DNA of 64,000 bases from Vicinamibacterales bacterium (GCA_965197935.1 CBDAOD010000003.1:1132042-1196041); one strand, 5' to 3'. Numbered from the stretch's first letter, positions 5,724 to 53,580 are shown. Program-made: numbers and translations. The notes: generated from the sequence alone by a model not told the origin.

Positions 5724-6006
5724 GTTCTCACAGGGTTGGCTCCGCTGCCGCGCTCGCCGACGCCGCGCTACCCGCGGGCTAGCAGTCCGTGGTGAGAGTC
5801 CTGCGTCGCACGAAGGGCGGCGCGGCGCCCGACTGACAAGGCGCGAGGAGCGAGAATACCGGGAGTATGTGACCGACGAGCAACGCAGTCAGGCGGGATG
5901 CAGCGCCGGCCGACTGCAACAGGACTTTTACTACGGGCTGCTAGTGGTGTGTCCCAAGAATAACTTTGCACTTCCCAACCTTCTCTAGAATCGTATCGAC
6001 CGTCGC

Positions 6007-7428
6007 GAGGGTGAGCGAAACTTAGTTGGAAATTGAAACGGCTCCCACACCCTGTGGTTTGATGACGTTAAGCAAAACGGCCATCAACCCACGAGAGAAA
6101 GGAGCCGAGATGAGCAGTGTCCTACGTCCTGTCAGGAAGCGCAAGAAGGGTCGCAAGCTGGGCCGGGTCGAGGTCATCCGGCGCGAGGACTACACCGCGC
6201 TGGAGCTGGACGCCAAGGTGGAGCTGATCCGCTCGCTGGTCCCGCTGGGCTTGATGCACGTGGAGGAGGTGCTCGACGAGGAGGTAACGGCGCTGGCTGG
6301 CGAGCGCTACGCCCGCAAGGCCGCGTCGATCGGGGGCCGCCGGCACGGTAGCAACCCTGGGACCGTCGGCCTGGCGGGGCAGCGGGTGCCGATTCGGGTG
6401 CCGCGGGGTCGCGGGGCGGGAGATTCCGTTGCGCGCCTACGAGGCGTTGCATGGCGACGGCGCGGTGAATGACCTCCTGCTGAAGCGCGGGCTCTATGGG
6501 ATCTCGTGTCGCAACTACGAGGCGGCCACCGAGGCGATTCCCGGCGCGATCGGGCTGTCGGGGTCGACGGTGTCCCGAGGCTTCATCGAGGCCAGCGCCG
6601 CGAAGCTTCACGAGCTCCAGGAGCGGGACCTGGCCGCTGAGGACGTCGTGGCCATCGTATTGGACGGCAAGACGTTCGCCGAGGCCACAATGGTCATCGC
6701 ACTGGGCATCACCATTTCAGGGGCGAAACACTTCCTCGGCTTCGTGGAGACGGACACGGAGAATGAGCGGGTGCTGACGCTGTTCTTGCGGTCGTTGGTC
6801 GAGCGGGGGCTGGACCTCTCGCAGGGCCTGCTGGTGATCCTCGACGGCAGCAAGGGGCTGCGGGCAGCCGTCCGGAAGACCTTCCGCCACCGCGCCCTGG
6901 TCCAACGGTGCCAGTGGCACAAGCGGGAGAACGTGGTGAGTCACCTGGCCAAGAGCGAACTGGCGGCGTGGCGTCAGCGCCTCCAGCGCGCCTACAACCG
7001 GCCGGAGTACGACGAGGCCCTCACGGCGCTCAAGACGCTCCAGGGCGAGCTCGACGAACGGAACCAGTCGGCGGCTCGGAGCTTGACAGAAGGTCTGGAC
7101 GAAACCTTAACGCTGCATCGCCTCGGGCTGTACGGGGTGCTGGGCCGGTCGCTGAAGACGACGAACTGTCTGGAGTCGGTCAATGCGCTCGTTGAGGAAC
7201 GCTGTGCGAAGGTTGACCACTGGCAGAACTCGAGCCAACGCCACCGCTGGCTGGCGACCGCGCTCCTGGACATCGAGCCGCGCCTGCGGAAGCTGATGGG
7301 CTACCGCCACCTGCCCACGCTTCGTGCCGCGTTGAAGCAAGAACTGAAGATCGACACGACGACATCGAAGAAGGCCGCATGACGAATCCGGAGCCGTAGA
7401 GAGTTTCAACTAAGAATGGGCTTGACTC
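6007..7428 (+). mobile_element. IS256-family element, copy 1, nested inside IS630
   Basis: Flanked by an 8-bp direct repeat ACCGTCGC (5999-6006 and 7429-7436). That repeat is single-copy at the equivalent site of IS630 copy 2. Imperfect terminal IRs GAGGGTGAGCGAAACTTAGTTGGAAA... / GAGTCAAGCCCATTCTTAGTTGAAA... Confidence 0.85.
6110..7382 (+). pseudogene. IS256-family (Mutator-type) transposase with an 8-bp deletion and frameshift near 6406
   Basis: Two track ORFs (6026-6472, 6429-7382) together equal the single 454-aa ORF of copy 2. Copy 2 reads GGTGCCGCGGGTGCGCGGGGTCGC where copy 1 reads GGTGCCGCGGGGTCGC. The likely start is ATG 6110 (MSSVLRPVRKRKKG) after AAGGAG. Confidence 0.85.
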
Positions 7429-8452
7429 ACCGTCGCGGTCCAGACAAAGGGTTGGGGGTTGTGTTGTAGCGCTGGAGGTAATCGTTGATGGCGGCGACGA
7501 GTTCGTCGACACTGCAAAACACCCCGCGGCGGATGCGTTTCTGCGTGAGCTGGCTGAACCAACTCTCGACGAGGTTGAGCCACGATGCGCCGGTAGGGGT
7601 GAAGTGGAGCGTGAAGCGCGGATGGGCCGCCAGCCAGGCCCGCACGGTCGGATGTTTATGCGTGCCGTAGTTGTCCAGAATGAGGTGGAGGTCGAGGCGA
7701 GAGGGGAACGCGCGGTGGAGTTGGCGAAGAAACTTCAGGAACTCCTGATGCCGATGCCGGCCGTGGCACTCGCCGATGACCTGCCCGGTCAGCATGTTCA
7801 GCGCGGCGAACAAGGTCGTTGTCCCGTGGCGCTTGTAGTCATGCGTGAGTGTCCCACAGCGGCCCTTCTTCATCGGCAGCCCGGGCTGCGTCCGGTCCAG
7901 CGCCTGAATGTGACTCTTCTCGTCCACACACAGCACGACGGCCTTCTCGGGCGGATTCATGTACAGCCCCACGACGTCCGTCAGCTTCTCCACGAACGCG
8001 GGATCGGTCGACAGCTTGAACGTCTCCACTCGATGGGGTTGGAGGCCATGCGCGTCCCAGATCCGCTGCACGGTCGAGCGACTGACCCCCTGCGCCTTCG
8101 CCATCGTGCGACAACTCCAGGGGGTCGCCCCCGGTGGCGTGCGGTGCAACGTTGCGTGGACGATGGCTTTGACCCTGCGCGCACTGATCGTCGGTTTGCG
8201 CCCGCGCCCCTCACGCATCTCGAACACCGAATCAACGCCCTCCTCTCCAAACCGGTCGCGCCAAGCCAGCACGGTCGGCCGGCTGACGTCCACGGTCGCG
8301 GCAATGCGGCTGTTGGAAACCCCCTCGGTCGCCAGCAGCAACGCCTTCGCGCGGATGACTACCCGATGCGGTGCCGACGTACTACGGGCCCACTGTTCCA
8401 GGAGTCGCCGATCCTTCGCGGCCATGGACAGAGCGGCGGCGGCCTCATTCAT
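7427..8452 (-). pseudogene. IS630-family transposase, copy 1 (1-nt deletion near 7462 and 3' end severed by IS256)
   Basis: The first ~327 aa are nearly identical to copy 2. Copy 1 reads CTACAACACAACCCCC versus CTACAACGACAACCCCC in copy 2, giving ...[13 protein letters not shown] instead of ...[32 protein letters not shown]. The last codons of the gene survive at 5941-6006. Confidence 0.85.
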
Positions 8453-9440
8453 CCCGCCTATATTGCACGCAGGTCGTTGATATGTAAATGTATTTCAGGG
8501 ACACTACACTAACGGTGGTGGCGCTCTTCGGGATGCTGCTGGGACCCACCGCCGGCGCGACAGCTGCCGAGGCTCGGCTCGCCGCAACCCCGCGCGCAGC
8601 GGGCGACCCGGACACGGACGCAAGAGCCGACCGACCGCGGGCCCGAAAGAGAGACACGGCACTGCCCGATGCCGTGGCCAAAACATCGTCTGAGCTCGCA
8701 CAGGAGCGCTCACCGTTTGCCGAACCCGTCCGGCCGATCACGCCGGAGCTCAAGCAGTTCGTGGACACAGGGTATCGACGGTCTCACACATTCCGCTCCA
8801 TCCTCGACGGTCTGGCGGGAAAGTTCGTCATCGTACACCTCGTTCCTGCGGCGTCACTACCATCCGGCCTCTCCGGCGGTCTTCAGTTCGTGACGACAGC
8901 CAACGGCTACCGCTACCTGCGGATCTCCATGCGCACCGACCTGGACCCTGCCGTGCTCATCGCCGTGCTTGGTCACGAGCTGCAGCACGCACTCGAGATC
9001 GGGCAGGCACGACACGTCGTGGATCTGGGAACCCTGCGGCACTTCTATCGCCTGACCGGCATCGAGTCCTGTCTGGACTCGAGTCAAGAATGCTACGACA
9101 CACCCCTTGCCCAAACGATGGGGCGTTCGGTCTACGCTGAAGTCCTCCATCCCTCGAGTTCCGACATCGAGGAACCCACCGCTTTCAAGTAAGCCTGTTC
9201 GCATTCGCCAGCCCGCGGACGAAGTGCTTCCCTAGCGCGGGTTGAAGCGAGCACTGAAGGCGCGCGTGCCGACAGGGCAGTAGACCATGGCGCGTGTTCG
9301 CGGTACGCTCAGGGATCGGGGGGGAGCGGCGTGGTCAGCGGAACGGCGGTGTACATGCTCGCTCACGCCAGCGTCCGCGACTGGACGCTCTGGGCCTGGG
9401 GCATGACCGCCGTGGCGATTCTCTTCAACCCCATCGAGGT

Positions 9441-9491: not shown

Positions 9492-9811
9492 CCAGAAGAG
9501 GGTACGGAATGGCTAGACGACTCTGGACGATTGGACTGAGCATCATTTTCATGGCGGCCAGCGCGCAGGCACAAACGGACCTGCCGTTTGAAGTCGGGTC
9601 CGTCACCGCATTCGACGAGCCCTGGGCCCTGGCGTTCTTGCCGGATGGCCGCATGCTGGTGACGGAAAAGAAGGGCAACCTGCTCATCGTCACCCAGGAC
9701 GGGGAAACGTTCCGAGCGATCGGCGGCGTGCCGGACGTCGCTTACGGCGGCCAGGGCGGGCTGGGGGACGTCGCCCTGCACCCGAATTCTCCCGAGAACC
9801 ACGTGATTTAC

Positions 9812-10401
9812 TTGAACAACCCTCGCCTGAAGGCGAGGGATTCACGGGTCGACTGAAGTCGACTGAAGGGGCGTCGGCGCCCCAGCGAACTTACTCGCTG
9901 ACTCGAAAGCGCTCGTCGTCCTGGGGTTCAGCACCTTGAAGCTTGATGTACTGCTCGATGACCTCATCCGTCACATTCCCGCTGCTGCACACGAAGTAGC
10001 CGCGAGCCCACAGGTGCCGCCCCCAGAACAACGACCGCAGCTTCCGGTGATCCTGCAACAGATGGTGCGACGTCTTGCCTTTGATCGCTTGCATCACCCG
10101 ACTCGGCGCCAGGTGCGGGGGCACGCTCAACAGCAAGTGCACGTGGTCCGGTCGAATGTGCCCCTGCAGAATCTCGATGTCGTGGCTCCGGCAGATCTCC
10201 CGGATCAGGGTCCGCACCTCCGTGCCCACATCCCCACGCAGCACCGGCTTGCGATACTTCGTGATGAACACGAAATGGTAGTGCAGGGTATAGATCGTAT
10301 GGGCAGCTCGACGATACTCGCGCATCATCGGACATCGTATCGCAAGCCTCCTGAAGGCTTCGCCTGAAGGCGAGGGGGTTCACCCATCCCAGAATGTGAC
10401 C
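9812..10401 (-). mobile_element. IS200/IS605-family element (tnpA only), 590 bp
   Basis: Deleting 9812-10401 joins GTGATTTAC to CTAAGCTAC and restores the host frame HVIY-LSYAE. Subterminal hairpins CCCTCGCC-TGAA-GGCGAGGG lie at both ends (9820-9839, 10360-10377) with no terminal IRs, as expected for this family. Confidence 0.85.
9891..10328 (-). CDS. tnpA: IS200-type Y1 (HUH) transposase TnpA
   Basis: YTLHYHFVFITKYRKPVL, the HUH motif in RPDHVHLLLSVPP, and catalytic Tyr context WARGYFVCSSG. About 145 aa, apparently intact. Confidence 0.9.
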   Translation of the reverse strand: MMREYRRAAHTIYTLHYHFVFITKYRKPVLRGDVGTEVRTLIREICRSHDIEILQGHIRPDHVHLLLSVPPHLAPSRVMQAIKGKTSHHLLQDHRKLRSLFWGRHLWARGYFVCSSGNVTDEVIEQYIKLQGAEPQDDERFRVSE

Positions 10402-11397
10402 CTAAGCTACGCCGAGTCCGGTGTGGGCAATACCCGGGGGGCGGCCGTCATCCGGGCGGTCCTGACCGAGACCCGGCGCGGAGGAGAGCTGTCCGACGTC
10501 GAGGTCATCTGGCGCCAGTACCCCAAGGTCGTCGGTTTCGGGCACTACGGGCACCGGCTGCTGTTCGACGATGCGGGCTACCTCTGGATCTCGTCCGGCG
10601 ACCGTCAGAAGTTCACACTGGCCAGGACATGCAGTCGAACATGGGCAAGGTCGTGCGGTTGCGCGACGACGGTTCGGTGCCGGACAGCAATCCCTTCGTC
10701 GACTACTTCGCCGAGAACCCGTTCGTCGACGACATCGGGGTCTATCCGCAGATCTGGTCGCTGGGCCACCGTAACGTACTCGGGCTGGCACTCGACCTCG
10801 ACGGTCAGCTCTGGGAGATCGAGATGGGGCCGCGGGGCGGCGACGAGCTGAACCTGGTCAAGAGAGCAGCGAATTACGGCTATCCCATCGTCTCCAACGG
10901 CGATCATTACGACTGGCGTGAGATCGCCGACCACGACGCGCATCCGGAGTTCGGCGAGCCGGCGGTGTGGTGGACACCCGTCATCTCGCCGGGTGACCTG
11001 ATGATCTATCGCGGCGACCTGTTCTCCGACTGGCGCGGCGATGCGCTCGTCGCCGGGCTCTCGTCGCGGGCAATCGTGCGTATCGAGCTCGACGGCGAGA
11101 AGGCCCGGGAGGTCGAGCGTTACGATATGCGCGCGCGGATCCGCAGCGTCGTCGAAGGACCGGACGGCGCCCTCTGGGTCCTGGAGGACGACGAAGACGA
11201 CAGCACCGGGCGCTTGCTCAAGCTCACGCCGAAGCGCTGAGAATCAAGGCCGAACCGATGTCCTGCGAACCGGAGTCGCAGCTCGGAGCCAGCGCTTCCG
11301 CACGAGATGCGGACGGGACGGGTCCGCGGGTGCAGCCCCACAGGCGTTGATGACGCTTGGCGCTTGCTAGATCGTTCAAACGAGAATCGCAGACACG

Positions 11398-32907: not shown

Positions 32908-34049
32908 TAGTGTAGTGTCCCTGAAATACATTTACATATCAACGACCTGCGTGCAATATAGGCGGGATGAATGATGCCGCCGCCGCTCTGTCCATGGCCG
33001 CGAAGGATCGGCGACTCCTGGAACAGTGGGCCCGTAGTACGTCGGCCCCGCATCGGGTAGTCATCCGCGCGAAGGCGTTGCTGCTGGCGACCGAGGGGGG
33101 TTCCAACAGCCGCATTGCCGCGACCGTGGACGTCAGCCGGCCGACCGTGCTGGCTTGGCGCGACCGGTTTGGAGAGGAGGGCGTTGATTCGGTGTTCGAG
33201 ATGCGTGAGGGGCGCGGGCGCAAACCGACGATCAGTGCGCGCAGGGTCAAAGCCATCGTCCACGCAACGTTGCACCGCACGCCACCGGGGGCGACCCCCT
33301 GGAGTTGTCGCACGATGGCGAAGGCGCAGGGGGTCAGTCGCTCGACCGTGCAGCGGATCTGGGACGCGCATGGCCTCCAGCCCCATCGAGTGGAGACGTT
33401 CAAGCTGTCGACCGATCCCGCGTTCGTGGAGAAGCTGACGGACGTCGTGGGGCTGTACATGAATCCGCCCGAGAAGGCCGTCGTGCTGTGTGTGGACGAG
33501 AAGAGTCACATTCAGGCGCTGGACCGGACGCAGCCCGGGCTGCCGATGAAGAAGGGCCGCTGTGGGACACTCACGCATGACTACAAGCGCCACGGGACAA
33601 CGACCTTGTTCGCCGCGCTGAAGCATGCTGACCGGGCAGGTCATCGGCGAGTGCCACGGCCGGCATCGGCATCAGGAGTTCCTGAAGTTTCTTCGCCAAC
33701 TCCACCGCGCGTTCCCCTCTCGCCTCGACCTCCACCTCATTCTGGACAACTACGGCACGCATAAACATCCGACCGTGCGGGCCTGGCTGGCGGCCCATCC
33801 GCGCTTCACGCTCCACTTCACCCCTACCGGCGCATCGTGGCTCAACCTCGTCGAGAGTTGGTTCAGCCAGCTCACGCAGAAACGCATCCGCCGCGGGGTG
33901 TTTTGCAGTGTCGACGAACTCGTCGCCGCCATCAACGATTACCTCCAGCGCTACAACGACAACCCCCAACCCTTTGTCTGGACCGCGACGGTCGATACGA
34001 TTCTAGAGAAGGTTGGGAAGTGCAAAGTTATTCTTGGGACACACCACTA
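32908..34049 (+). mobile_element. IS630-family element, copy 2 (~1.14 kb)
   Basis: TA-flanked, with IRs TAGTGTAGTGTCCC... / ...GGGACACACCACTA. Nearly identical to copy 1 but in the opposite orientation. Confidence 0.85.
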
Positions 34050-34050
34050 G
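32967..34050 (+). pseudogene. IS630-family transposase, copy 2, 1-nt insertion near 33623
   Basis: Track ORFs 32967-33764 and 33625-34050 overlap. Copy 2 reads CTGAAGCATGCTG where copy 1 reads CTGAACATGCTG (...[17 protein letters not shown]...). Confidence 0.85.
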
Positions 34051-34052
34051 CA

Positions 34053-41995: not shown

Positions 41996-42523
41996 CTACT
42001 GGATTGGGTTTGAACCCGCGGGCGCACCGTTTTGCGTGACCACGACCTGCGCAGTGCTCTGGTAGATCGTGCCACCCTGATTCGTGCCGAAGAATCGCGC
42101 GCCGGCTCCGGCCGTGGGATCGCCGCCCACGAAGTACGTTCCGACCACGGTGCCGGCAGCCGCGCCGTTACAGGACGCGGGAGCACCCGCAGCCGCCGCG
42201 CCAGCGGTCAGGGCAACCGTGTAGCCACTCTTGACCGAGGGATCGGTCGCCAGGTCCGGGCCGATGAAGCCGTCACCGCCGGCCACGGTCGGTGGCGTTG
42301 CCAGCCGCACGAGCGACGGGGCGTAGAAGCCACTGCCGCAGCTGGACGCGAAGGTCGACTGGGCGCTGTTGATAGCCCTGAGCGACCCGATGGCCGAAGC
42401 CTCGTTGCCCGACATTCGGGCCCGCAGTAGACCCGGTACCGCGATGGCCGCGATGATCCCGATGATCGCCACGACGATCAGAAGCTCGATGAGCGTGAAC
42501 CCTTTGTTGTCCCGTGCCTTCAT
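41996..42523 (-). CDS. pilA: Type IV major pilin, paralogue 1
   Basis: MKARDNKG/FTLIELLIVVAIIGIIAAIAVPGLL prepilin motif. Two Cys (SSCGSG, PASCNG). The track ORF start at 42649 is an upstream extension. Confidence 0.85.
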   Translation of the reverse strand: MKARDNKGFTLIELLIVVAIIGIIAAIAVPGLLRARMSGNEASAIGSLRAINSAQSTFASSCGSGFYAPSLVRLATPPTVAGGDGFIGPDLATDPSVKSGYTVALTAGAAAAGAPASCNGAAAGTVVGTYFVGGDPTAGAGARFFGTNQGGTIYQSTAQVVVTQNGAPAGSNPIQ

Positions 42524-42627
42524 TGCTTTGCTCCTCGCTGTGTATCCTGCCGCGTTTGTAAGCGCCCAGGTCGTCGCCTCGGCTGGTTCAACGACGCTGT
42601 TCTCGGCTCGAACCTGCCCAGACGAGA

Positions 42628-42643
42628 AGCAAGCGGGATGCCA
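42628..42643 (-). promoter_or_regulatory. Sigma-54 (-24/-12) promoter of pilin paralogue 1
   Basis: Minus strand reads TGGCAT-CCCGC-TTGCT, against consensus TGGCAC-N5-TTGCW. It lies about 105 nt upstream of ATG 42523 and downstream of a PilS/PilR-type NtrC-family pair. Confidence 0.75.
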
Positions 42644-42848
42644 GGCCACACCCTTGTCAGGAAATGGCCCTTAACTTACTGAGAGCAAGTCACTTGATGA
42701 GACGGGTCGGGACGGCGGAACGCCGACCGTCGCGGGCGGCCCTCCGTGACGCGACAGAAAGTGCCGCCCGGGTGACAACGAGCGTCAGTTGGGCGTCCGC
42801 TGCGCGGCCGCAGGTGCCCTGTGTTGGAGCAGGAGGATGCGCCAGGAC

Positions 42849-43376
42849 CTACTGGATCGGCGTGGCGCCCGCAGGCATACCGTTCTGGGTCACGACGACC
42901 TGCGCCGTGCTCTGGAAGATCGTGCCACCTTGGTTCGTGCCAAAGAACCGCGCCCCCGCCCCCGGTGTCGGGTCGGCCCCGACGAAGTAGGTCGTCGTGA
43001 CGGCACCCGCGGCCGCTCCGTTGCACGACGCAGGGGCTCCGGCAGCAGCTGCACCTGGAGTCAGCGTCACGCTGTAGCCGCTTTTGGTCGAGGGGTCCAC
43101 GGCCAAATCGGGTCCGATGAAACCGTCGCCACCGGCGACGGTCGGGGGTGCCGCCAGCCGCGCCAGCGACGGGGCGTAGAAGCCGCTCCCGCAGCTGGCG
43201 GCGAAGGTGGACTGAGCACTGTTCACGGCCCGCAGCGATCCGATTGCCGACGCCTCATTGCCCGACATCCGGGCTCGCAGCAGACCCGGCACGGCGACGG
43301 CCGCAATGATGCCGATGATTGCCACGACGATGAGCAGCTCGATTAGCGTGAAACCGCGCGAATTCTGCAATCTCAT
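42849..43376 (-). CDS. pilA: Type IV major pilin, paralogue 2
   Basis: MRLQNSRG/FTLIELLIVVAIIGIIAAVAVPGLL. Colinear with paralogue 1 along the whole length, roughly 85% identical by eye. Confidence 0.85.
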   Translation of the reverse strand: MRLQNSRGFTLIELLIVVAIIGIIAAVAVPGLLRARMSGNEASAIGSLRAVNSAQSTFAASCGSGFYAPSLARLAAPPTVAGGDGFIGPDLAVDPSTKSGYSVTLTPGAAAAGAPASCNGAAAGAVTTTYFVGADPTPGAGARFFGTNQGGTIFQSTAQVVVTQNGMPAGATPIQ

Positions 43377-43460
43377 GACCCGTCTCCTTCCGTCCGCCAG
43401 CACCGTCACAAAACCCAATACAGGCCCGGAGGAGAGCCTCATGGCGTCGGTCTTGCGGTC

Positions 43461-43481: not shown

Positions 43482-43487
<6 letters not shown>
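43461..43487. promoter_or_regulatory. Perfect 10-bp inverted repeat overlapping the pilR stop codon (regulator site or U-tract-less hairpin)
   Basis: GACTGATACC-TAGTGTC-GGTATCAGTC. Noticeably AT-richer than its context. Confidence 0.35.
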
Positions 43488-44909
<1,422 letters not shown>

Positions 44910-46621: not shown

Positions 46622-47824
46622 TCACGCGAGCTGGTTGATGAGCTCGAAGATCGGTAGGTACATCGATATGACGATTCCGCCGACGACAACGCCCAGAACG
46701 AAGATCATGATCGGCTCCAGGAGGGTGAGCAGGCCGGCCACCGCCGCATCGACCTCCTCCTCGTAGAACTCGGCGATCTTGGACAGCATCGCGTCCAGCG
46801 CACCCGTGGTCTCACCGACGTTGATCATCTGGCTGACCATCGGCGGGAAGACCGCGGTACTCTTGAGCGGACCAGAGAGCGACTCGCCACGCTCGAGACT
46901 GGTGCGCGTGAACATCACGGCATCCCGGATGATCGCGTTGCCTGCCGTCTTCGCCGTGATCTCCAGCCCGTCCAAGATCGGCACACCCGAGGCGATGAGC
47001 GTCGAGAGGGTGCGGCAGAATCTGGCGACCGCCACCTTCCGCAAGATGTTGCCCAGCACGGGCGCCTTGAGCATTAGTCGATCCACGACTCGCTCTCCGC
47101 GCTCAGTGCCGTAGCACTTCTTAAACAGGAACGTCAGAGCGATCCCGCCCAGGAGCATGAACGGCATCCAGGCGATCAATCCGTTGCTGGCCGCGATGAC
47201 GATTCGGGTCGGCAGCGGCAGCTCCGCGCCCAGCCCTTCGAACAGCGTCGCGAAGGTCGGAATGACCTTCCACAGGATCGCCGCGACGACGACGGCGGCG
47301 ATCACGATGACCGCGATCGGATAGATCATCGCGGACTTGACCTGGCCCTTGAGCTTGACGGACTTCTCGATGTACTCGGCCAGCCGCTTGAGGATGGTGT
47401 CGAGGATGCCCCCGGCCTCGCCGGCGGCCACCATGTTCGAGTAGAGCTGGTCGAACGCTGCGGGCGACTTCCGCATCGCTTCGGCGAGAGACGCGCCGCC
47501 CTCGACATCCTCGCGCGTCTTCAGGATCATCTTCGCGAATCTGGCGTCCTCCTCTTGCTTGCCCAGGATGTCGAGGCACTGCACGAGTGGGAGCCCTGCG
47601 TCGATCATCACCGAGAACTGTCGGGTGAACACGGCCAGGTTCTTGCTCGGGACGGCCCGCCCCTTCTTCGGTGGTTTCGCCTTCGCCTTCACCGGGTCGA
47701 TCCGGGTGACCAGCACCTGCTCTCGACGAAGCCCGGAGACGACAACCTGCGAGGTGTCGCCACTGCGCTCGCCGCTCACGAGCTCTCCGGTTCGCGTTCG
47801 GCCGGAGTACGCAAAGGTCGGCAT
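46622..47824 (-). CDS. pilC: Type IV pilus platform protein PilC
   Basis: Two GspF-type repeats and the canonical C-terminus ...VGGIVISMYLPIFELINQLA. Confidence 0.9.
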   Translation of the reverse strand: MPTFAYSGRTRTGELVSGERSGDTSQVVVSGLRREQVLVTRIDPVKAKAKPPKKGRAVPSKNLAVFTRQFSVMIDAGLPLVQCLDILGKQEEDARFAKMILKTREDVEGGASLAEAMRKSPAAFDQLYSNMVAAGEAGGILDTILKRLAEYIEKSVKLKGQVKSAMIYPIAVIVIAAVVVAAILWKVIPTFATLFEGLGAELPLPTRIVIAASNGLIAWMPFMLLGGIALTFLFKKCYGTERGERVVDRLMLKAPVLGNILRKVAVARFCRTLSTLIASGVPILDGLEITAKTAGNAIIRDAVMFTRTSLERGESLSGPLKSTAVFPPMVSQMINVGETTGALDAMLSKIAEFYEEEVDAAVAGLLTLLEPIMIFVLGVVVGGIVISMYLPIFELINQLA

Positions 47825-47898
47825 GTCTTCGGTCTCTGATGATGGACGGCCTCACGCGGAAGTCGAGGCGCGATGTTTGGACGGCCAGGCGCCGCGGG

Positions 47899-49050
47899 TC
47901 ACGGCCGCCGTGGTCGAGACATTGGCTCGGCGGCCGACGGCCGGGAGCCGCCGAACCGGGCTCCCTCTCGCCGGACGACGACGTCCTCACCGCGCTTGAT
48001 CATCTCCTGCAGCTCTTCCTTGAGCGAGGAGGCCGCCATGGCGGTCCCGATCGAGATTCGCTTGCGCTGGAAGAGCGTGGCGAGCGCCTGATTCATGGTC
48101 TGCATGCCGAGTCGGTCCTGCCCGGACTGCATGGCCGAGTAGATCTGGTGGATCTTGTCCTCGCGGATGAGATTCCGGATCGCGCTGGTCGGCACCATGA
48201 TCTCGAGCGCCGGCACCCTGCCCTGACCGTTCGAGGTCGGAAGCAGCGACTGGCACACAATGCCTTCGAGTACGAACGAGAGCTGGGTGCGAACCTGCGG
48301 CTGCTGGTGAGCCGGGAAGACATCGATCATGCGGTTGATCGACTGCGCGGCCGAGTTGGTGTGCAGCGTGGCGAACGTGAGATGCCCCGTCTCGGCGATC
48401 CGCAGGGCCGCCTCGATCGTCTCGAGGTCTCTCAGCTCTCCGATTAACACGATATCCGGGTCTTCACGCAGCGCCGACCGGAGGGCCGGCGCGAATCCGT
48501 GTGTGTCGCCACCCACCTCTCGTTGGTTGACCAGGCACCCCTTGTGCTCGTGCAGATACTCGATGGGGTCCTCGACCGTCAGGATGTGCTGGCGTCGCGA
48601 AAGGTTGATCTTGTGGAGCAGCGCCGCCAGCGTGGTCGACTTGCCGCTACCGGTGGGCCCGGTCACCAGAACGAGGCCGCGCGGTCGCTCGGCGAGCTCG
48701 GCAATGACCGGAGGGAGGCCCAGTTCTTGAAATCCATGGATCTTGTCGGGGATCAGTCGGTAGACCGCCCCGACGGAGCCACGCTGGCTGAACACGTTGC
48801 AGCGGAAGCGACCGATGCCGCGGACGCCGAAGGCGAGGTCCAGCTCTAGGGTCTCCTCGAAACGCTTCTTCTGTCCGTCGGTGAGCACGCTGTAGGCCAG
48901 CCGCTTGGTGTCGGCCGGCGTCAGCTTCGGCGCATCGAGCGTCCGGAGCTCGCCATGAACGCGAACCTGGGGCGGGGTGCCGGTCGCGAGGTGCAGATCG
49001 GATCCACCGAGCTCGCTGGTCGTCTTGAGTAGTTCGGGCAGTGTCGGCAT
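47899..49050 (-). CDS. pilT: Type IV pilus retraction ATPase PilT
   Basis: ATG 49050 (MPTLPELLKTTSELGGSDLHL). Walker A GPTGSGKST, and AHQQPQVRTQLS plus the GMQTMNQAL region typical of PilT. The upstream 108 aa of the track ORF are rejected. Confidence 0.9.
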   Translation of the reverse strand: MPTLPELLKTTSELGGSDLHLATGTPPQVRVHGELRTLDAPKLTPADTKRLAYSVLTDGQKKRFEETLELDLAFGVRGIGRFRCNVFSQRGSVGAVYRLIPDKIHGFQELGLPPVIAELAERPRGLVLVTGPTGSGKSTTLAALLHKINLSRRQHILTVEDPIEYLHEHKGCLVNQREVGGDTHGFAPALRSALREDPDIVLIGELRDLETIEAALRIAETGHLTFATLHTNSAAQSINRMIDVFPAHQQPQVRTQLSFVLEGIVCQSLLPTSNGQGRVPALEIMVPTSAIRNLIREDKIHQIYSAMQSGQDRLGMQTMNQALATLFQRKRISIGTAMAASSLKEELQEMIKRGEDVVVRREGARFGGSRPSAAEPMSRPRRP

Positions 49051-49525
49051 GGCTACATCACCGTTTCGCGCACGACCTCCTCGACGGTCGTGACGCCCGC
49101 TGCGATCTTTCTCAGTCCGCTCCCGCGCAGCGAGATCATCCCTTCCTCGAGGGCCTTTCGACGCAGCTCCAACGAGGACGCGCCAACAAGGATCAGCTCC
49201 CGCAGGCTGTCCGTCACCTCCATCACTTCGTACAGCCCGACGCGCCCCTTGTATCCCGTGCGATCGCACTTCTCGCACCCGGCGCCCTCGCTGGGGATCA
49301 CCCGATCTGCGTCGTCGGGCGAGAACCCGATCTTCTGCAGGGCCTCCCCGGGCAGAGGGCTGGGCTGGACGCATTCGCCGCAGACGCGGCGAACCAGGCG
49401 CTGGGCGCAGATCAGATTGACCGAGCTGGCCACGAGAAAGGGCTCGATCCCCATGTTCATCAATCGGCTGATCGTGCTTGGAGCGTCATTCGTGTGAAGG
49501 GTCGAGGAGTCAAGCCCATTCTTAG

Positions 49526-49683
49526 AGTCTCCCTCTGGGATGGGTGAAACCCCTCGCCTTTAGGCGAAGCCTTCAGGAGGCCGCAGGGCCGGACCTCTTC
49601 GGGCTCTGGGACGTGCGCCGTGATAGTCGGCTTCAGCCGACGCGGCGCACTGATTCCCTCGCCTTCAGGCGAGGGAGACTCAA
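49526..49683 (+). mobile_element. Non-autonomous IS200/IS605 derivative (PATE/MITE-like), 158 bp, no ORF
   Basis: It splits the IS256 IR CATTCTTAG|TTGAAACTC. 49535-49581 matches the tnpA-proximal end of the IS200 element (reverse complement of 10345-10392). 49655-49676 matches the other end (reverse complement of 9820-9840), including the CCCTCGCC..GGCGAGGG hairpin. Confidence 0.75.
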
Positions 49684-49710
49684 TTGAAACTCTCTACGGC
49701 TCCGGATTCG

Positions 49711-50991
49711 TCATGCGGCCTTCTTCGATGTCGTCGTGTCGATCTTCAGTTCTTGCTTCAACGCGGCACGAAGCGTGGGCAGGTGGCGGTAGCCCATCAG
49801 CTTCCGCAGGCGCGGCTCGATGTCCAGGAGCGCGGTCGCCAGCCAGCGGTGGCGTTGGCTCGAGTTCTGCCAGTGGTCAACCTTCGCACAGCGTTCCTCA
49901 ACGAGCGCATTGACCGACTCCAGACAGTTCGTCGTCTTCAGCGACCGGCCCAGCACCCCGTACAGCCCGAGGCGATGCAGCGTTAAGGTTTCGTCCAGAC
50001 CTTCTGTCAAGCTCCGAGCCGCCGACTGGTTCCGTTCGTCGAGCTCGCCCTGGAGCGTCTTGAGCGCCGTGAGGGCCTCGTCGTACTCCGGCCGGTTGTA
50101 GGCGCGCTGGAGGCGCTGACGCCACGCCGCCAGTTCGCTCTTGGCCAGGTGACTCACCACGTTCTCCCGCTTGTGCCACTGGCACCGTTGGACCAGGGCA
50201 CGGTGGCGGAAGGTCTTCCGGACGGCTGCCCGCAGCCCCTTGCTGCCGTCGAGGATCACCAGCAGGCCCTGCGAGAGGTCCAGCCCCCGCTCGACCAACG
50301 ACCGCAAGCACAGCGTCAGCACCCGCTCATTCTCCGTGTCCGTCTCCACGAAGCCGAGGAAGTGTTTCGCCCCAGAAATGGTGATGCCCAGTGCGATGAC
50401 CATTGTGGCCTCGGCGAACGTCTTGCCGTCCAATACGATGGCCACGACGTCCTCAGCGGCCAGGTCCCGCTCCTGGAGCTCGTGAAGCTTCGCGGCGCTG
50501 GCCTCGATGAAGCCTCGGGACACCGTCGACCCCGACAGCCCGATCGCGCCGGGAATCGCCTCGGCGGCCGCCTCGTAGTTGCGACACGAGATCCCATAGA
50601 GCCCGCGCTTCAGCAGGAGGTCATTCACCGCGCCGTCGCCATGCAACGCCTCGTAGGCGCGCAACGGAATCTCCCGCCCCGCGACCCCGCGCACCCGCGG
50701 CACCCGAATCGGCACCCGCTGCCCCGCCAGGCCGACGGTCCCAGGGTTGCTACCGTGCCGGCGGCCCCCGATCGACGCGGCCTTGCGGGCGTAGCGCTCG
50801 CCAGCCAGCGCCGTTACCTCCTCGTCGAGCACCTCCTCCACGTGCATCAAGCCCAGCGGGACCAGCGAGCGGATCAGCTCCACCTTGGCGTCCAGCTCCA
50901 GCGCGGTGTAGTCCTCGCGCCGGATGACCTCGACCCGGCCCAGCTGGCGACCCTTCTTGCGCTTCCTGACAGGACGTAGGACACTGCTCAT
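49711..50991 (-). CDS. IS256-family (Mutator-type) transposase, intact copy
   Basis: Single ORF. The likely start is the ATG for MSSVLRPVRKRKKG (50991). The DDE-type core includes ...VLDGKTF...ILDGSKGL...QRCQWHKRENV... Confidence 0.9.
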   Translation of the reverse strand: MSSVLRPVRKRKKGRQLGRVEVIRREDYTALELDAKVELIRSLVPLGLMHVEEVLDEEVTALAGERYARKAASIGGRRHGSNPGTVGLAGQRVPIRVPRVRGVAGREIPLRAYEALHGDGAVNDLLLKRGLYGISCRNYEAAAEAIPGAIGLSGSTVSRGFIEASAAKLHELQERDLAAEDVVAIVLDGKTFAEATMVIALGITISGAKHFLGFVETDTENERVLTLCLRSLVERGLDLSQGLLVILDGSKGLRAAVRKTFRHRALVQRCQWHKRENVVSHLAKSELAAWRQRLQRAYNRPEYDEALTALKTLQGELDERNQSAARSLTEGLDETLTLHRLGLYGVLGRSLKTTNCLESVNALVEERCAKVDHWQNSSQRHRWLATALLDIEPRLRKLMGYRHLPTLRAALKQELKIDTTTSKKAA

Positions 50992-52494
50992 CTCGGCTCC
51001 TTTCTCTCGTGGGTTGATGGCCGTTTTGCTTAACGTCATCAAACCACAGGGTGTGGGAGCCGTTTCAATTTCCAACTAAGTTTCGCTCACCCTCGGGTCG
51101 AGAGCACGAGGTGGCCCGTCAAGGCCGCCTTGACGGCGATCTCGGCCGTTTCGAAGTCCCGAATCTCCCCCACCAGAATGATGTTGGGATCCTGCCGGAG
51201 GAACGACCGCAGGGCCGCCGCAAAGTTCAGGCCAATCGCTTCCCGTACCTGCACCTGATTGACACCCGGCAAGTTGAACTCGACCGGATCCTCGGCCGTC
51301 ATGATGTTGGTCTGCGGTGTATTGATGCGAGCCATGGACGAGTAGAGCGTGTTGGTCTTCCCGCTGCCGGTCGGACCCGTGACGAGCACCATCCCCCACG
51401 GACGCTCGATGGCCGCCTCGTAGACGGCGAGCGATTCCCGCTCGAAGCCCAGGCCGGTCATGTCCAGCATGAGCTTGTCCCGGTCCAGCAGGCGCAACAC
51501 GATCTTCTCGCCGAACAGCGTCGGCAGGCACGACACACGGAAGTCGATCTCCTTCGAACGCCCCTTGTCGTTGAACCGGATCTTGATGCGCCCATCCTGG
51601 GGCAAGCGCTTCTCCGCGATGTCCAGCTTCGCCATGATCTTGAGCCGCGATGCGATCGCATCGCGCAAGCTCAGGGACGGCTCCATCACCTGATAGAGGA
51701 TCCCGTCCACCCGAAACCGCACGCGCAGCTCGCGTTCGTATGGCTCGATGTGGATGTCGCTGGCGCCCTTCTGGATCGCGGACATCAGAATCAGGTGCAC
51801 CAGCCGAACGACCGGGGCCTCGTTCCCCTGCTTCTCCAGCGTGGCGACGTCGAGCTCCGCCAAATCCTCGAGCTCTTCCACCTCGTCCGCCGGCGGCATG
51901 TCCTCGAGCGCCCTGGTGGCGATCTCGAGCGTGCTGGCGTGTTCCTTTTGCTGGGCGACGCCGTAGTAGGTCTCGATGGCAGCGAGAATCGCGCTCTCCG
52001 GCGATACGACCGGCTCGACGTTGTACCCCGTCATGAACTTGATGTCGTCCATGGCGAACACGTTCGTCGGGTCCGTGATCGCGATCGTCAGCGTCCAGCC
52101 GACACGGCTGAGCGGCACGAACCGATACCGCATCGCGGTCTCGGCCGAGACGACCTTGATGACCTCCGCGTCGATCTCGAACAGCGACAGATTGATCGAC
52201 GGGACACCGTAGTGCCGGCTCAGCACGGCCGCGATCTCGTCGTCGGTGACGCATCCGAGACTCACGAGGCTGGCGTCGAGCGTGCCCCCCTTGGATCGCT
52301 GATGCTCGCTCGCGTCCTCGAGCTGCGCCGCGGTGACCCGACCCTCCTTGAGCAGGAGATCGCCGATCTCTACGACCATCGTCCGGGGGAAGACCTCAGC
52401 AGTCCGTGATGAAAGTCCGGCGTCGCACCGGTGCGGCGCGCCGCAGGCAAGGCGCGAGGAGGAAGAATGAGGGTGCGCGGAGGAAGGATGTCCG

Positions 52495-53580
52495 CTAGAA
52501 CTGGACGCTGGCCGCGAGGCCCCAGCCCCGGTCGGCGCCCTCGGGGCCCCGGGTGACCTGTCCCGCGATGGCTACACGTGACCAGGCCCGCATGCTGAGG
52601 CCGCCCGCCGCCACGACCCGGGCCGCGTCGATGGTGTTCGCCCGAAGTCCGCCCCGGACCGCCACCCGTCTGTCTAGCCACCATCGTTCGGCTCCGATCG
52701 CGATATTGCGCCGCTCGCCGACGGCGGTGACGCTCCGGCTCAGATCGACATCGCAGGCGATCGTCAGCCGGTCATCCGCCATCACGGCCACACCGGCGCG
52801 CACGAGCCGTTTCGGCCCAAGCTGGACGCCGGTCGGCGTCTCGAACACGGGCTCCCGGAGGTTCCGCACGACGAGGCCCCCTCGGAGGCGACCGATCGCC
52901 ACCATGGCACCCGCATCGAGATCGAACGTGCTCCGAGACCGCCGTTCGAGTCGGCCCAACTGGCCCAGCTCGTCCGAGAGATCCTGCACGTCCGGGCGGT
53001 CCTCCAGGCCGGCGGAGCCCCTGACGAATCGGAAGGTGGCTCCGACCGCGACACCCTGCGCCAGCGACTGCACCATGCTCACGCCTGCATGGTTCGTCAC
53101 GAGCGAGGCCGCCTGGACCACTGGCCCTCTCTCCTCTTTTCGGCCAGACCCGGCCTCGGCTCCAACGTCCTGGTGCGGGAGAAGCTCACGCGAGCTCAGC
53201 TGGTAGTAGGTAAGGCCCAGCGGTGGCGTCCCGAGCGCGATGATCGTGGCGCCGGCACGATAGCCACCCTGGGTGGGGTCGTCCGGGGGGGAGGTCGCCT
53301 CGGTCGTCTGGCGTTCACCCAGGAGGGTGAAGAAGGGTCCGGTCGCCAACCCGGCGGGGTTCCAGTAGACCGCCGTGGCATCGTCGGCCACGGCCACGAA
53401 CGCTCCCGCCATGCCCAGGGCCCGCACGCCCACGGTCTCGAAGCTCTGGCCCCGGGCAGGCACCGACGACACGAGGCAGAGCGCGACCGGAATCAGGGCG
53501 ACGACGAGAACGGCAGGCCGGCGCGGGCCGGCTGGAGCCACCACCTCGGCGGCGCGGGAAGGGGCGGAGAAGCCGCACAC
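52495..53580 (-). CDS. Putative outer-membrane beta-barrel protein, unknown function
   Basis: Signal-like N-terminus, GVRALGMAGAFVAVADDATAVYWNPAGLA motif, alternating beta-strand pattern, and terminal ...GWGLAASVQF (C-terminal Phe). Confidence 0.55.
   Translation of the reverse strand: MCGFSAPSRAAEVVAPAGPRRPAVLVVALIPVALCLVSSVPARGQSFETVGVRALGMAGAFVAVADDATAVYWNPAGLATGPFFTLLGERQTTEATSPPDDPTQGGYRAGATIIALGTPPLGLTYYQLSSRELLPHQDVGAEAGSGRKEERGPVVQAASLVTNHAGVSMVQSLAQGVAVGATFRFVRGSAGLEDRPDVQDLSDELGQLGRLERRSRSTFDLDAGAMVAIGRLRGGLVVRNLREPVFETPTGVQLGPKRLVRAGVAVMADDRLTIACDVDLSRSVTAVGERRNIAIGAERWWLDRRVAVRGGLRANTIDAARVVAAGGLSMRAWSRVAIAGQVTRGPEGADRGWGLAASVQF

Follow-up and report, generated by a model that had tools for sequence, protein, structure and literature searches.

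In the 64,000-nucleotide stretch of Vicinamibacterales DNA analysed here (CBDAOD010000003.1:1132042-1196041 of assembly GCA_965197935.1; hereafter the window, with all positions counted from its first letter), the gene pilB, which encodes the type IV pilus assembly ATPase of a Vicinamibacterales-like soil acidobacterium, is broken inside its His box. The explanation that best accounts for the locus overall, and to which we assign a probability of about 80%, is that pilB was recently cut by an insertion sequence (IS) of the IS256 family, and that the CTTAG in the right inverted repeat (IRR) of this IS was filled by a palindrome-associated transposable element (PATE) mobilised in trans. The nested anatomy itself can be read directly: the interrupter of pilB is a 1430-bp IS256-family IS with the usual 8-bp duplication of its target, and its IRR is in turn cut between bp 19 and 20, that is, between CTTAG and TTG, by a PATE of 158 bp. 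Read from the 5' end of pilB, the components are as follows.

51095..52379, minus strand: pilB 5' fragment, codons 1-428, ending ...TGHLVLST and including the right copy of the target site duplication (TSD)
51095..51102: right TSD copy, GGGTCGAG, 8 bp
49507..51094, minus strand: IS256-family IS in pilB, 1588 bp, made up of 1430 bp of IS and the 158-bp insert; its transposase is codirectional with pilB
51056..51094, minus strand: left inverted repeat (IRL), intact, with an unoccupied CTTAG at bp 15-19
49711..50991, minus strand: IS256-family (Mutator-type DDE) transposase, 426 aa, uninterrupted
49684..49703, plus strand: inner half of the IRR (bp 20-39), pushed 158 bp from the IS tip
49526..49683, plus strand: PATE, 158 bp, without an open reading frame (ORF), non-autonomous and of IS200/IS605 type, starting with AGTCTCCCTC and ending with GAGGGAGACTCAA
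49656..49675, plus strand: subterminal hairpin of the PATE right end (RE), CCCTCGCC TTCA GGCGAGGG, followed by AGAC and the terminal TCAA (49680-49683)
49613..49650, plus strand: long central hairpin of the PATE, GTGCGCCGTG...GTCGGC TTCA GCCGAC...CGCGGCGCAC
49551..49570, plus strand: subterminal hairpin of the PATE left end (LE), CCCTCGCC TTTA GGCGAAGC, imperfect
49507..49525, plus strand: outer half of the IRR (bp 1-19), ending in the PATE target CTTAG (49521-49525)
49499..49506: left TSD copy, GGGTCGAG, 8 bp
49053..49498, minus strand: pilB 3' fragment, from LHTNDAPS... to the stop, comprising the remaining half of the His box and the C-terminal tetracysteine domain

When 52379..51095 and 49498..49053 are joined and one TSD copy is dropped, an ORF of 576 aa is restored that contains neither stop nor frameshift, which bears out an earlier note on this DNA that had placed the split between ...TGHLVLST and LHTNDAPS... 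and had described the 8-bp TSD as intact. The rejoined PilB scores 756 bits on the equivalog model TIGR02538 (cutoff, 675.65), carries MshEN and T2SSE domains, and aligns without gaps to an intact homologue across the junction, where 20 residues are identical. As the gene now stands, its two parts are separated by 1596 bp, and the truncated ORF enters the IS and stops there; the N-terminal product of 430 aa ends in ...LSTRG and has neither a completed His box nor the C-terminal Cys4 domain, so that the gene is indeed broken, as the same note had claimed. The insertion costs the protein half of its His box together with the C-terminal zinc-binding domain; we therefore infer that pilB is non-functional, and the pilT and pilC genes may suffer polar effects. 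A tblastn search with the rejoined PilB found no other pilB within the 64-kb window, and an uninterrupted allele of the source lineage was not found among 5.8 billion proteins, where the best intact PilB is 76% identical. Exact-protein look-ups with the window's IS transposase, TnpA (below), pilT product and truncated PilB returned no record; only pilC led to a related contig. The rejoined pilB ORF is undecayed, and the copies of the IS and of the PATE are near-identical; the insertion events are therefore recent.

The transposase of the interrupting IS matches PF00872 with 121 bits (cutoff, 21) over positions 20-371 of 379 and the IS256-family model NF033543 with 200 bits (cutoff, 150), in line with the family assignment and the uninterrupted transposase ORF reported earlier. 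Its two inverted repeats match at 24 of 39 positions and share CTTAGTTG at bp 15-22. The window holds one further copy of this IS, which serves as a reference for its ends.

6007..7428, plus strand: second IS256-family copy, both inverted repeats PATE-free, with the TSD ACCGTCGC at 5999-6006 and 7429-7436

Once 49526-49683 is removed from the pilB IS, the remaining 1430 bp align end to end with this second copy, including the sequence ...CATTCTTAG running directly into TTGAAACTC... at the point of excision; the end sequence of the second copy is thus restored, and the splitting of one terminal repeat by a 158-bp ORF-less element, proposed in the earlier note, stands. The second copy differs from the pilB IS by 6 substitutions, and it lacks 8 bp, a deletion that frameshifts its transposase. 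This copy is itself nested in an IS630-type element (5939-8511), near the 3' end of a DDE_3-like transposase ORF; an uninterrupted IS630-type copy lies in inverted orientation at 32908-34052, and the arms are 99% identical.

At the PATE junctions, CTTAG is followed by AGTCTCC... on one side and ...GACTCAA by TTGAAAC on the other, no bases are duplicated, and excision restores an intact IRR exactly. Folded as single-stranded DNA, the element reaches -49 kcal/mol (z = -6), with its first 11 nt paired to the last ones, and its termini are complementary over 10 nt. A scan of 49000-52500 against Rfam at E<=1 gave no match, so the PATE is not a described RNA family. We considered whether the GATT found in place of GAAT 5' of the RE hairpin is a disabling mutation and rejected this, as 15 identical copies at different sites carry GATT. 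Size variants of the element also exist. One of 243 nt combines one LE with two tandem REs (LE-RE1-RE2) and is seen at 2118-2360 of contig L001 and at 4933-5176 of contig L075; in L001 it corresponds to an extra 85-bp RE-only unit at the very site of the pilB IS that holds the 158-nt form in the window, and in L075 it occupies a non-IS site. RE2 is 96% identical to RE1, with GAAT before the hairpin in RE2 and GATT in RE1. In contig L077 (112-427), two 100%-identical PATEs form a perfect head-to-tail tandem in which ...GACTCAA runs into AGTCTCC..., the RE-LE junction expected of an excised circle.

What kind of element this is becomes apparent from a tnpA-bearing element some 40 kb away in the same window, to which we compared it.

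9812..10401, minus strand: IS200-type element, tnpA only, 590 bp, with CTTAG on its LE side, ending in TCAA, no duplication
9891..10328, minus strand: tnpA, encoding a 145-aa Y1 (HUH) transposase with the HVH motif and the GYF tyrosine

TnpA scores 143 bits on PF01797 and 155.6 bits on NF033573 (cutoff, 55). The element carries hairpins at 10357-10376 and 9820-9839 and lacks terminal inverted repeats; when 9812-10401 is removed, the flanks join in frame as ...VIY followed by LSYAE... with no repeated bases, showing that it interrupts a PQQ-type dehydrogenase gene. The PATE lies in the opposite orientation, and the pairwise alignment gave 90% complementarity over 61 nt on the LE side (49521-49581 against 10346-10406) and 82% over 38 nt on the RE side (49651-49688 against 9807-9844). 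Hence the first 56 nt of the PATE resemble the left end of the IS200-type element and its last ~70 nt the right end. The RE hairpin, CCCTCGCC-TTCA-GGCGAGGG, is identical in both, and the central hairpin shows a compensatory pair (GTCGGC/GCCGAC in the PATE, GTCGAC/GTCGAC in the IS200-type element), with compensatory changes in relatives too. The motifs common to the two elements have a chance expectation of 0.00-0.01 in the window, and the earlier proposal that the ends of the small element correspond to the two hairpin-bearing ends of the IS200 element holds. Because its ends match those of the IS200-type element, and because both are flanked by CTTAG and finish in TCAA, we assign the 158-bp element to the PATEs of the IS200/IS605 family. 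The PQQ/sorbosone-dehydrogenase-like host gene (9509-11240) also appears to carry a frameshift near 10610-10630; there, the overlapping ORFs 10396-10851 and 10629-11240 lie in different frames.

The complementary 10-nt termini and the strongly palindromic structure would also be expected of a classical DDE-derived miniature inverted-repeat transposable element (MITE), or of a repeat of the repetitive extragenic palindrome (REP) type with its associated tyrosine transposase (RAYT), and a 53-nt single-hairpin form in contig L061 looks REP-like. Nevertheless, this is the least probable of the readings that we weighed: the insertion sites examined show no target duplication, the PATE in the pilB IS lying between CTTAG and TTGAAAC; both ends have homology to those (LE and RE) of an element with a Y1 tnpA; the insertions obey a TTAG-specific rule; and against NF047646, the model for REP-associated tyrosine transposases (cutoff, 80), the local TnpA reaches only 38.9 bits, compared with 155.6 on the IS200 model. 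The short forms, of about 53-55 nt, consist of the LE 5' end, one hairpin and an RE tail ending in TCAA; that of L061 (Ga0184623_10018666, 53 nt) follows TTGG, and that of L047 follows TTAG.

The TTAG rule and the wider distribution of the family were examined in Acidobacteriota genomes and metagenomes. A scan for the LE core in GTDB species representatives returned at least 59 stretches; among the matches listed, almost all are Acidobacteriota/Vicinamibacterales metagenome-assembled genomes (MAGs), and most are tnpA elements of ~599 bp. Across 65 insertions with distinct flanks from these genomes and the metagenomes, TTAG stands directly before the LE in 54 and CTTAG in 39, against a background of 0.00075 per position, which firmly establishes TTAG as the target rule of the IS200-type elements and PATEs. 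A metagenome scan with the PATE 5' end added 13 soil loci, with ORF-less relatives of 153-167 nt that have the same termini at unrelated loci (Joint Genome Institute, JGI, soil metagenomes); tnpA is absent from all 13. In three soil metagenome contigs (L068, L071 and L073), relatives of the PATE are themselves interrupted inside or just after the hairpin by other DNA; the insert in L068 begins GTGCAGCG... and is possibly a group II intron.

The exact 158-nt sequence recurs as well. We count 15 PATE copies that are 100% identical, in contigs L074-L079 and L086-L088 and in the window, both inside and outside the IS. These copies bear on the notion that a full-length IS200-type element inserted into the repeat and then lost tnpA in place by internal deletion, for which the homology of the PATE ends to a tnpA-bearing element in the same window could be cited. 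Since identical copies sit at other loci, and ORF-less homologues of 153-167 nt at unrelated metagenome loci, the loss of tnpA must predate the insertion at the pilB IS; an in-place deletion is effectively refuted, and we regard it as very improbable. The PATE is therefore a family that moves, rather than the product of a local deletion. The IS200 copy at 9812-10401 is, judged by sequence, a relative of the PATE's parent rather than the parent: the LEs of the two are 90% identical, and other lineages reach 96.7%. Copies such as this one are probably the source of TnpA in trans.

Taken together, these observations fit a mechanism that is known for the family and that we extend to the PATE by analogy. 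The element would move in single-stranded form ("peel and paste"); its left and right subterminal hairpins would be recognised by a Y1 transposase acting in trans, which would insert it 3' of TTAG, preferably CTTAG, with no duplication and with TCAA at its end. On the simplest account, a recent and very homogeneous burst of PATEs would have filled much of the rare CTTAG target space, with the IS repeats as neutral landing sites.

We then asked how often the IS carries a PATE. Its transposase is represented by no fewer than 16 near-identical variants, which are spread over about 31 places, among them contigs of 3.36 and 2.65 Mb, and a census of distinct copies comprises 11, namely the two in the window and nine that are readable in other contigs (L074-L079, L086-L088). 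The identical 158-bp PATE is found at CTTAG in the right repeat of seven copies and in the left repeat of six, that is, at 13 of 22 ends; the six PATE-bearing left repeats include a degraded one and one whose outer repeat has been replaced. Altogether, 10 of the 11 copies carry a PATE, the sole exception being the frameshifted copy at 6007-7428. The pilB case thus exemplifies a systematic association: the nested anatomy of the earlier note's three-level account stands, and its implication of a one-off event does not. Perfect 8-bp TSDs flank six PATE-bearing copies (those in pilB, L076, L086, L087, L088 and L079). The last of these, from a different sample (ENA ERZ25067264 ctg828125_22x_c; 77,804 bp, circular by name, 22x), has PATEs in both repeats and the TSD AAGGACGC; its IS adjoins a RepA_C gene on a contig that looks like a plasmid and hints at how horizontal spread may occur. 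The transposase of this copy combines the 8-bp deletion of the window's second copy with a 1-bp deletion that restores the frame, giving 423 aa. Relatives of the IS that are 90% identical, from other samples, have clean inverted repeats carrying CTTAG, with 8-bp TSDs at L080, L082, L083 and L084. In contig L074 (about 2240-2260 and 5249), the left-end PATE is preceded by ...GGATCCCACCTTAG instead of the outer IRL, in a context like that of the adjacent IS3-type end; this suggests either that mobile elements have undergone a rearrangement with each other or that two abutting ISs have a PATE in common.

Such a high occupancy could mean that the PATE rides on the IS. It may have entered an IS repeat only once or twice, earlier and elsewhere, and a competent composite then jumped into pilB; the PATE would be a hitch-hiker, or hyperparasite, in both repeats of the IS256-family element, the composite would still move by copy-out/paste-in, and the IS would not be immobilised. 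We consider this possible, though doubtful. If true, the hitch-hiking PATE would be copied by the DDE transposase that the IS encodes as well as by TnpA, and it would spread along with the IS; the composite would have near-perfect terminal repeats of up to 177 bp. The PATE ends AGTCTCCCTC and GAGGGAGACT pair, and extrusion of the PATE could place the halves of the repeat next to each other again. The prevalence of PATE-bearing copies, with the only clean one frameshifted, speaks for this idea, as do the six such copies at different loci with perfect TSDs, including L079 with both repeats filled, the divergence of at most 0.3% among IS copies, which points to a recent burst, and the pairing of the first 11 nt of the PATE with the last ones in the single-stranded fold. 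However, perfect TSDs are equally expected if the PATEs came after each IS insertion, and a phylogeny from single-nucleotide polymorphisms (SNPs) of nine IS copies showed no phylogenetic signal, its 22 variable columns being mostly singletons or one shared 8-bp deletion. A single pilB site with two PATE variants in two assemblies (158 nt, and 243 nt with a second RE) also argues against arrival as a ready-made composite. The metagenome scan with the PATE 5' end yielded no junction evidence for composite mobility, none of its 13 loci lying at an IS256 end.

Occupancy itself requires no special mechanism. The window (66% GC) contains 10 CTTAG sites on both strands, four of which are IS repeats. 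In the contigs at hand, CTTAG is occupied at 11 of 20 intact inverted-repeat sites and at 5 of 14 other sites, a difference that is not significant. Strong hot-spot targeting of the IS repeats was likewise tried and rejected, the comparison of 13 of 22 inverted-repeat ends with 4 of 13 other CTTAG sites giving p = 0.16 in Fisher's test. Since ~36% of the other CTTAG sites are filled, and since the occupancy states of IRL and IRR look independent of each other, separate PATE insertions into resident IS copies are slightly favoured over co-transposition.

Whether an IS with a split repeat can still move is informed by the biochemistry of ISCth4, whose transposase contacts bp 7-11 and 14-25 and integrates terminal inverted repeats (TIRs) shorter than 25 bp poorly, and which nevertheless tolerates one truncated TIR in junction integration (PMC7780238). 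On this basis, a cut at bp 19/20 should impair the IS end, but not necessarily its activity if only one end is hit; the contacts at bp 14-25 weigh against a mobile composite, and the tolerance of a single truncated TIR weighs for it. The conclusion of the earlier note that the pilB IS would have been immobilised by its damaged end is reasonable in the light of ISCth4, though unproven. In the mirror image of the hitch-hiker, a PATE burst would have split the transposase-binding sites of an expanding IS and thereby put almost all of its copies out of action.

Finally, repeats that are this numerous raise the concern that the assembly mis-joined them and that pilB, IS and PATE are not contiguous in any real molecule. 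The genome is rich in ISs, with near-identical transposases at no fewer than about 31 places; the related low-coverage contigs L077 and L078 lack matching TSDs; and frameshifts in common in the pilR-like gene hint at homopolymer errors. Against this stand the exact TSD, the in-frame rejoining of pilB and PATE boundaries that follow the TTAG/TCAA rule of the family. The same junctions are moreover found in a non-identical assembly, L001 (ENA ERZ25072076), which over 15 kb agrees with the window at 99.6-99.9% identity and has a PATE at the same site. We therefore hold an artefact to be highly unlikely, and this independent assembly allays the worry over chimeric joins that had accompanied the earlier note.

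Several points weigh against our preferred explanation of a recent IS insertion whose IRR was filled by a trans-mobilised PATE, or limit its reach. A second pilB could exist elsewhere in the genome, outside the window. The ends of the nearest TnpA-encoding element in the window are only ~90% (LE) and 82% (RE) identical to those of the PATE, so that trans-mobilisation enters as a likely rather than a demonstrated step. The order in which PATE and IS arrived at pilB is not readable from the sequence of the locus. Most comparison contigs have only 2-4x coverage, and the PATE copy number and the CTTAG occupancy rest on the readable ones. Moreover, the presence of a PATE in 10 of 11 IS copies, with the clean one frameshifted, is awkward if the PATE-bearing copies are dead; in that case, the expansion of the IS needs masters that are no longer seen.

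Downstream of pilB, the window contains pilT, pilC, pilS/pilR-like genes and two pilin genes.

47899-49050, minus strand: pilT, immediately downstream of the broken pilB (pilT/pilC block, 46622..49050)
46622-47824, minus strand: pilC, on the pilB strand, downstream with pilT

The two pilin-like genes (41996-43442) carry an N_methyl domain, stand in tandem downstream of the pilSR-like genes, 853 bp from start to start, and are 78% identical in DNA. The pilR-like sigma-54 activator (43482-44882) has a C-terminal Fis-type helix-turn-helix (...AAARLGMSFRSFRYYVKKYELS, followed by the stop) that is out of frame with the rest of the gene; the frame shifts at a G5 run at about 43600-43625, identically in the independent contig L001, and may represent either a real pseudogene, in which case the pilus regulon would have decayed further, or a systematic error at the homopolymer. 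GC skew in the window, considered as a guide to a lagging-strand bias in the orientation of the elements, is weak and confounded by gene orientation; it turns from positive to negative near 16 kb, which could reflect gene-strand bias or a replication landmark.

In comparison with known systems, all components are of known kinds: an IS of the IS256 family, the IS200/IS605 family with its PATE, and IS-mediated gene loss. Like IS608 and ISDra2, the tnpA-only 590-bp element has an imperfect LE hairpin and a perfect RE hairpin, both subterminal, and its autonomous copy shows no terminal inverted repeats, no duplication and insertion 3' of a fixed tetranucleotide. IS608 also ends in TCAA, as the window elements do; its target is TTAC, and that of ISDra2 is TTGAT. 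The window elements differ from both in targeting TTAG/CTTAG, in the absence of tnpB, in their Acidobacteriota host and in a mobilisation that would occur in trans. PATEs have been described in Haloquadratum walsbyi and Halanaerobium hydrogeniformans (PMC3119063; PMC7290912), and the window elements display what PMC7290912 summarises as defining for the IS200/IS605 family and for the non-autonomous PATEs that belong to it. As in the known PATEs, ours is short and ORF-less, keeps only the IS200/IS605 hairpin ends, is present in multiple copies and is presumed to be mobilised in trans. In contrast to them, it derives from a tnpA-only IS200-type element and not from an IS1341/IS605 element with tnpB; it is very homogeneous (15 identical copies) and apparently fills a rare target; it has 10-nt complementary termini that its autonomous relatives lack; and its family includes forms of 53 nt, 153-167 nt and 243 nt with two REs, as well as a head-to-tail dimer.

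The IS, for its part, shares with the copy-out/paste-in DDE elements IS256 and ISCth4 (PMC7780238) a Mutator-type transposase of ~420 aa, a length of ~1.4 kb, imperfect repeats, 8-bp TSDs and many near-identical copies. It departs from them in that its repeats contain the blocks CTTAGTTG and ACGGCTCC rather than the TGTAAA motif described for the family, and in that, in most of its copies, a foreign element of 158 bp interrupts one or both repeats at bp 19/20; in the literature searched, we found no report of IS256-family repeats split by a recurrent foreign element. As in other nested IS insertions and cases of IS-mediated type IV pilus loss, an element sits within an element within a gene, and an intact TSD marks the inactivation. 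Nothing fundamental sets the locus apart from ordinary nested insertions; only the recurrence of the innermost insertion at the same site across IS copies is unusual, and it is this presence of the PATE in IS terminal repeats that a specialist might follow up.

For the organism, an uncultured soil acidobacterium, our analysis indicates that the motor for pilus extension was lost recently, amid an IS burst; twitching, adhesion or DNA uptake would be the functions affected. Taken alone, the pilB locus is routine, and more is to be gained from the pattern to which it belongs: a new and very homogeneous PATE family, together with its target rule, is of help in annotating Acidobacteriota MAGs, and the presence of a PATE in one or both terminal repeats in most copies of a DDE-type IS amounts to a natural experiment on the damage that an end of the IS256 family can withstand, and on whether a transposon is able to travel with, or to silence, another one.

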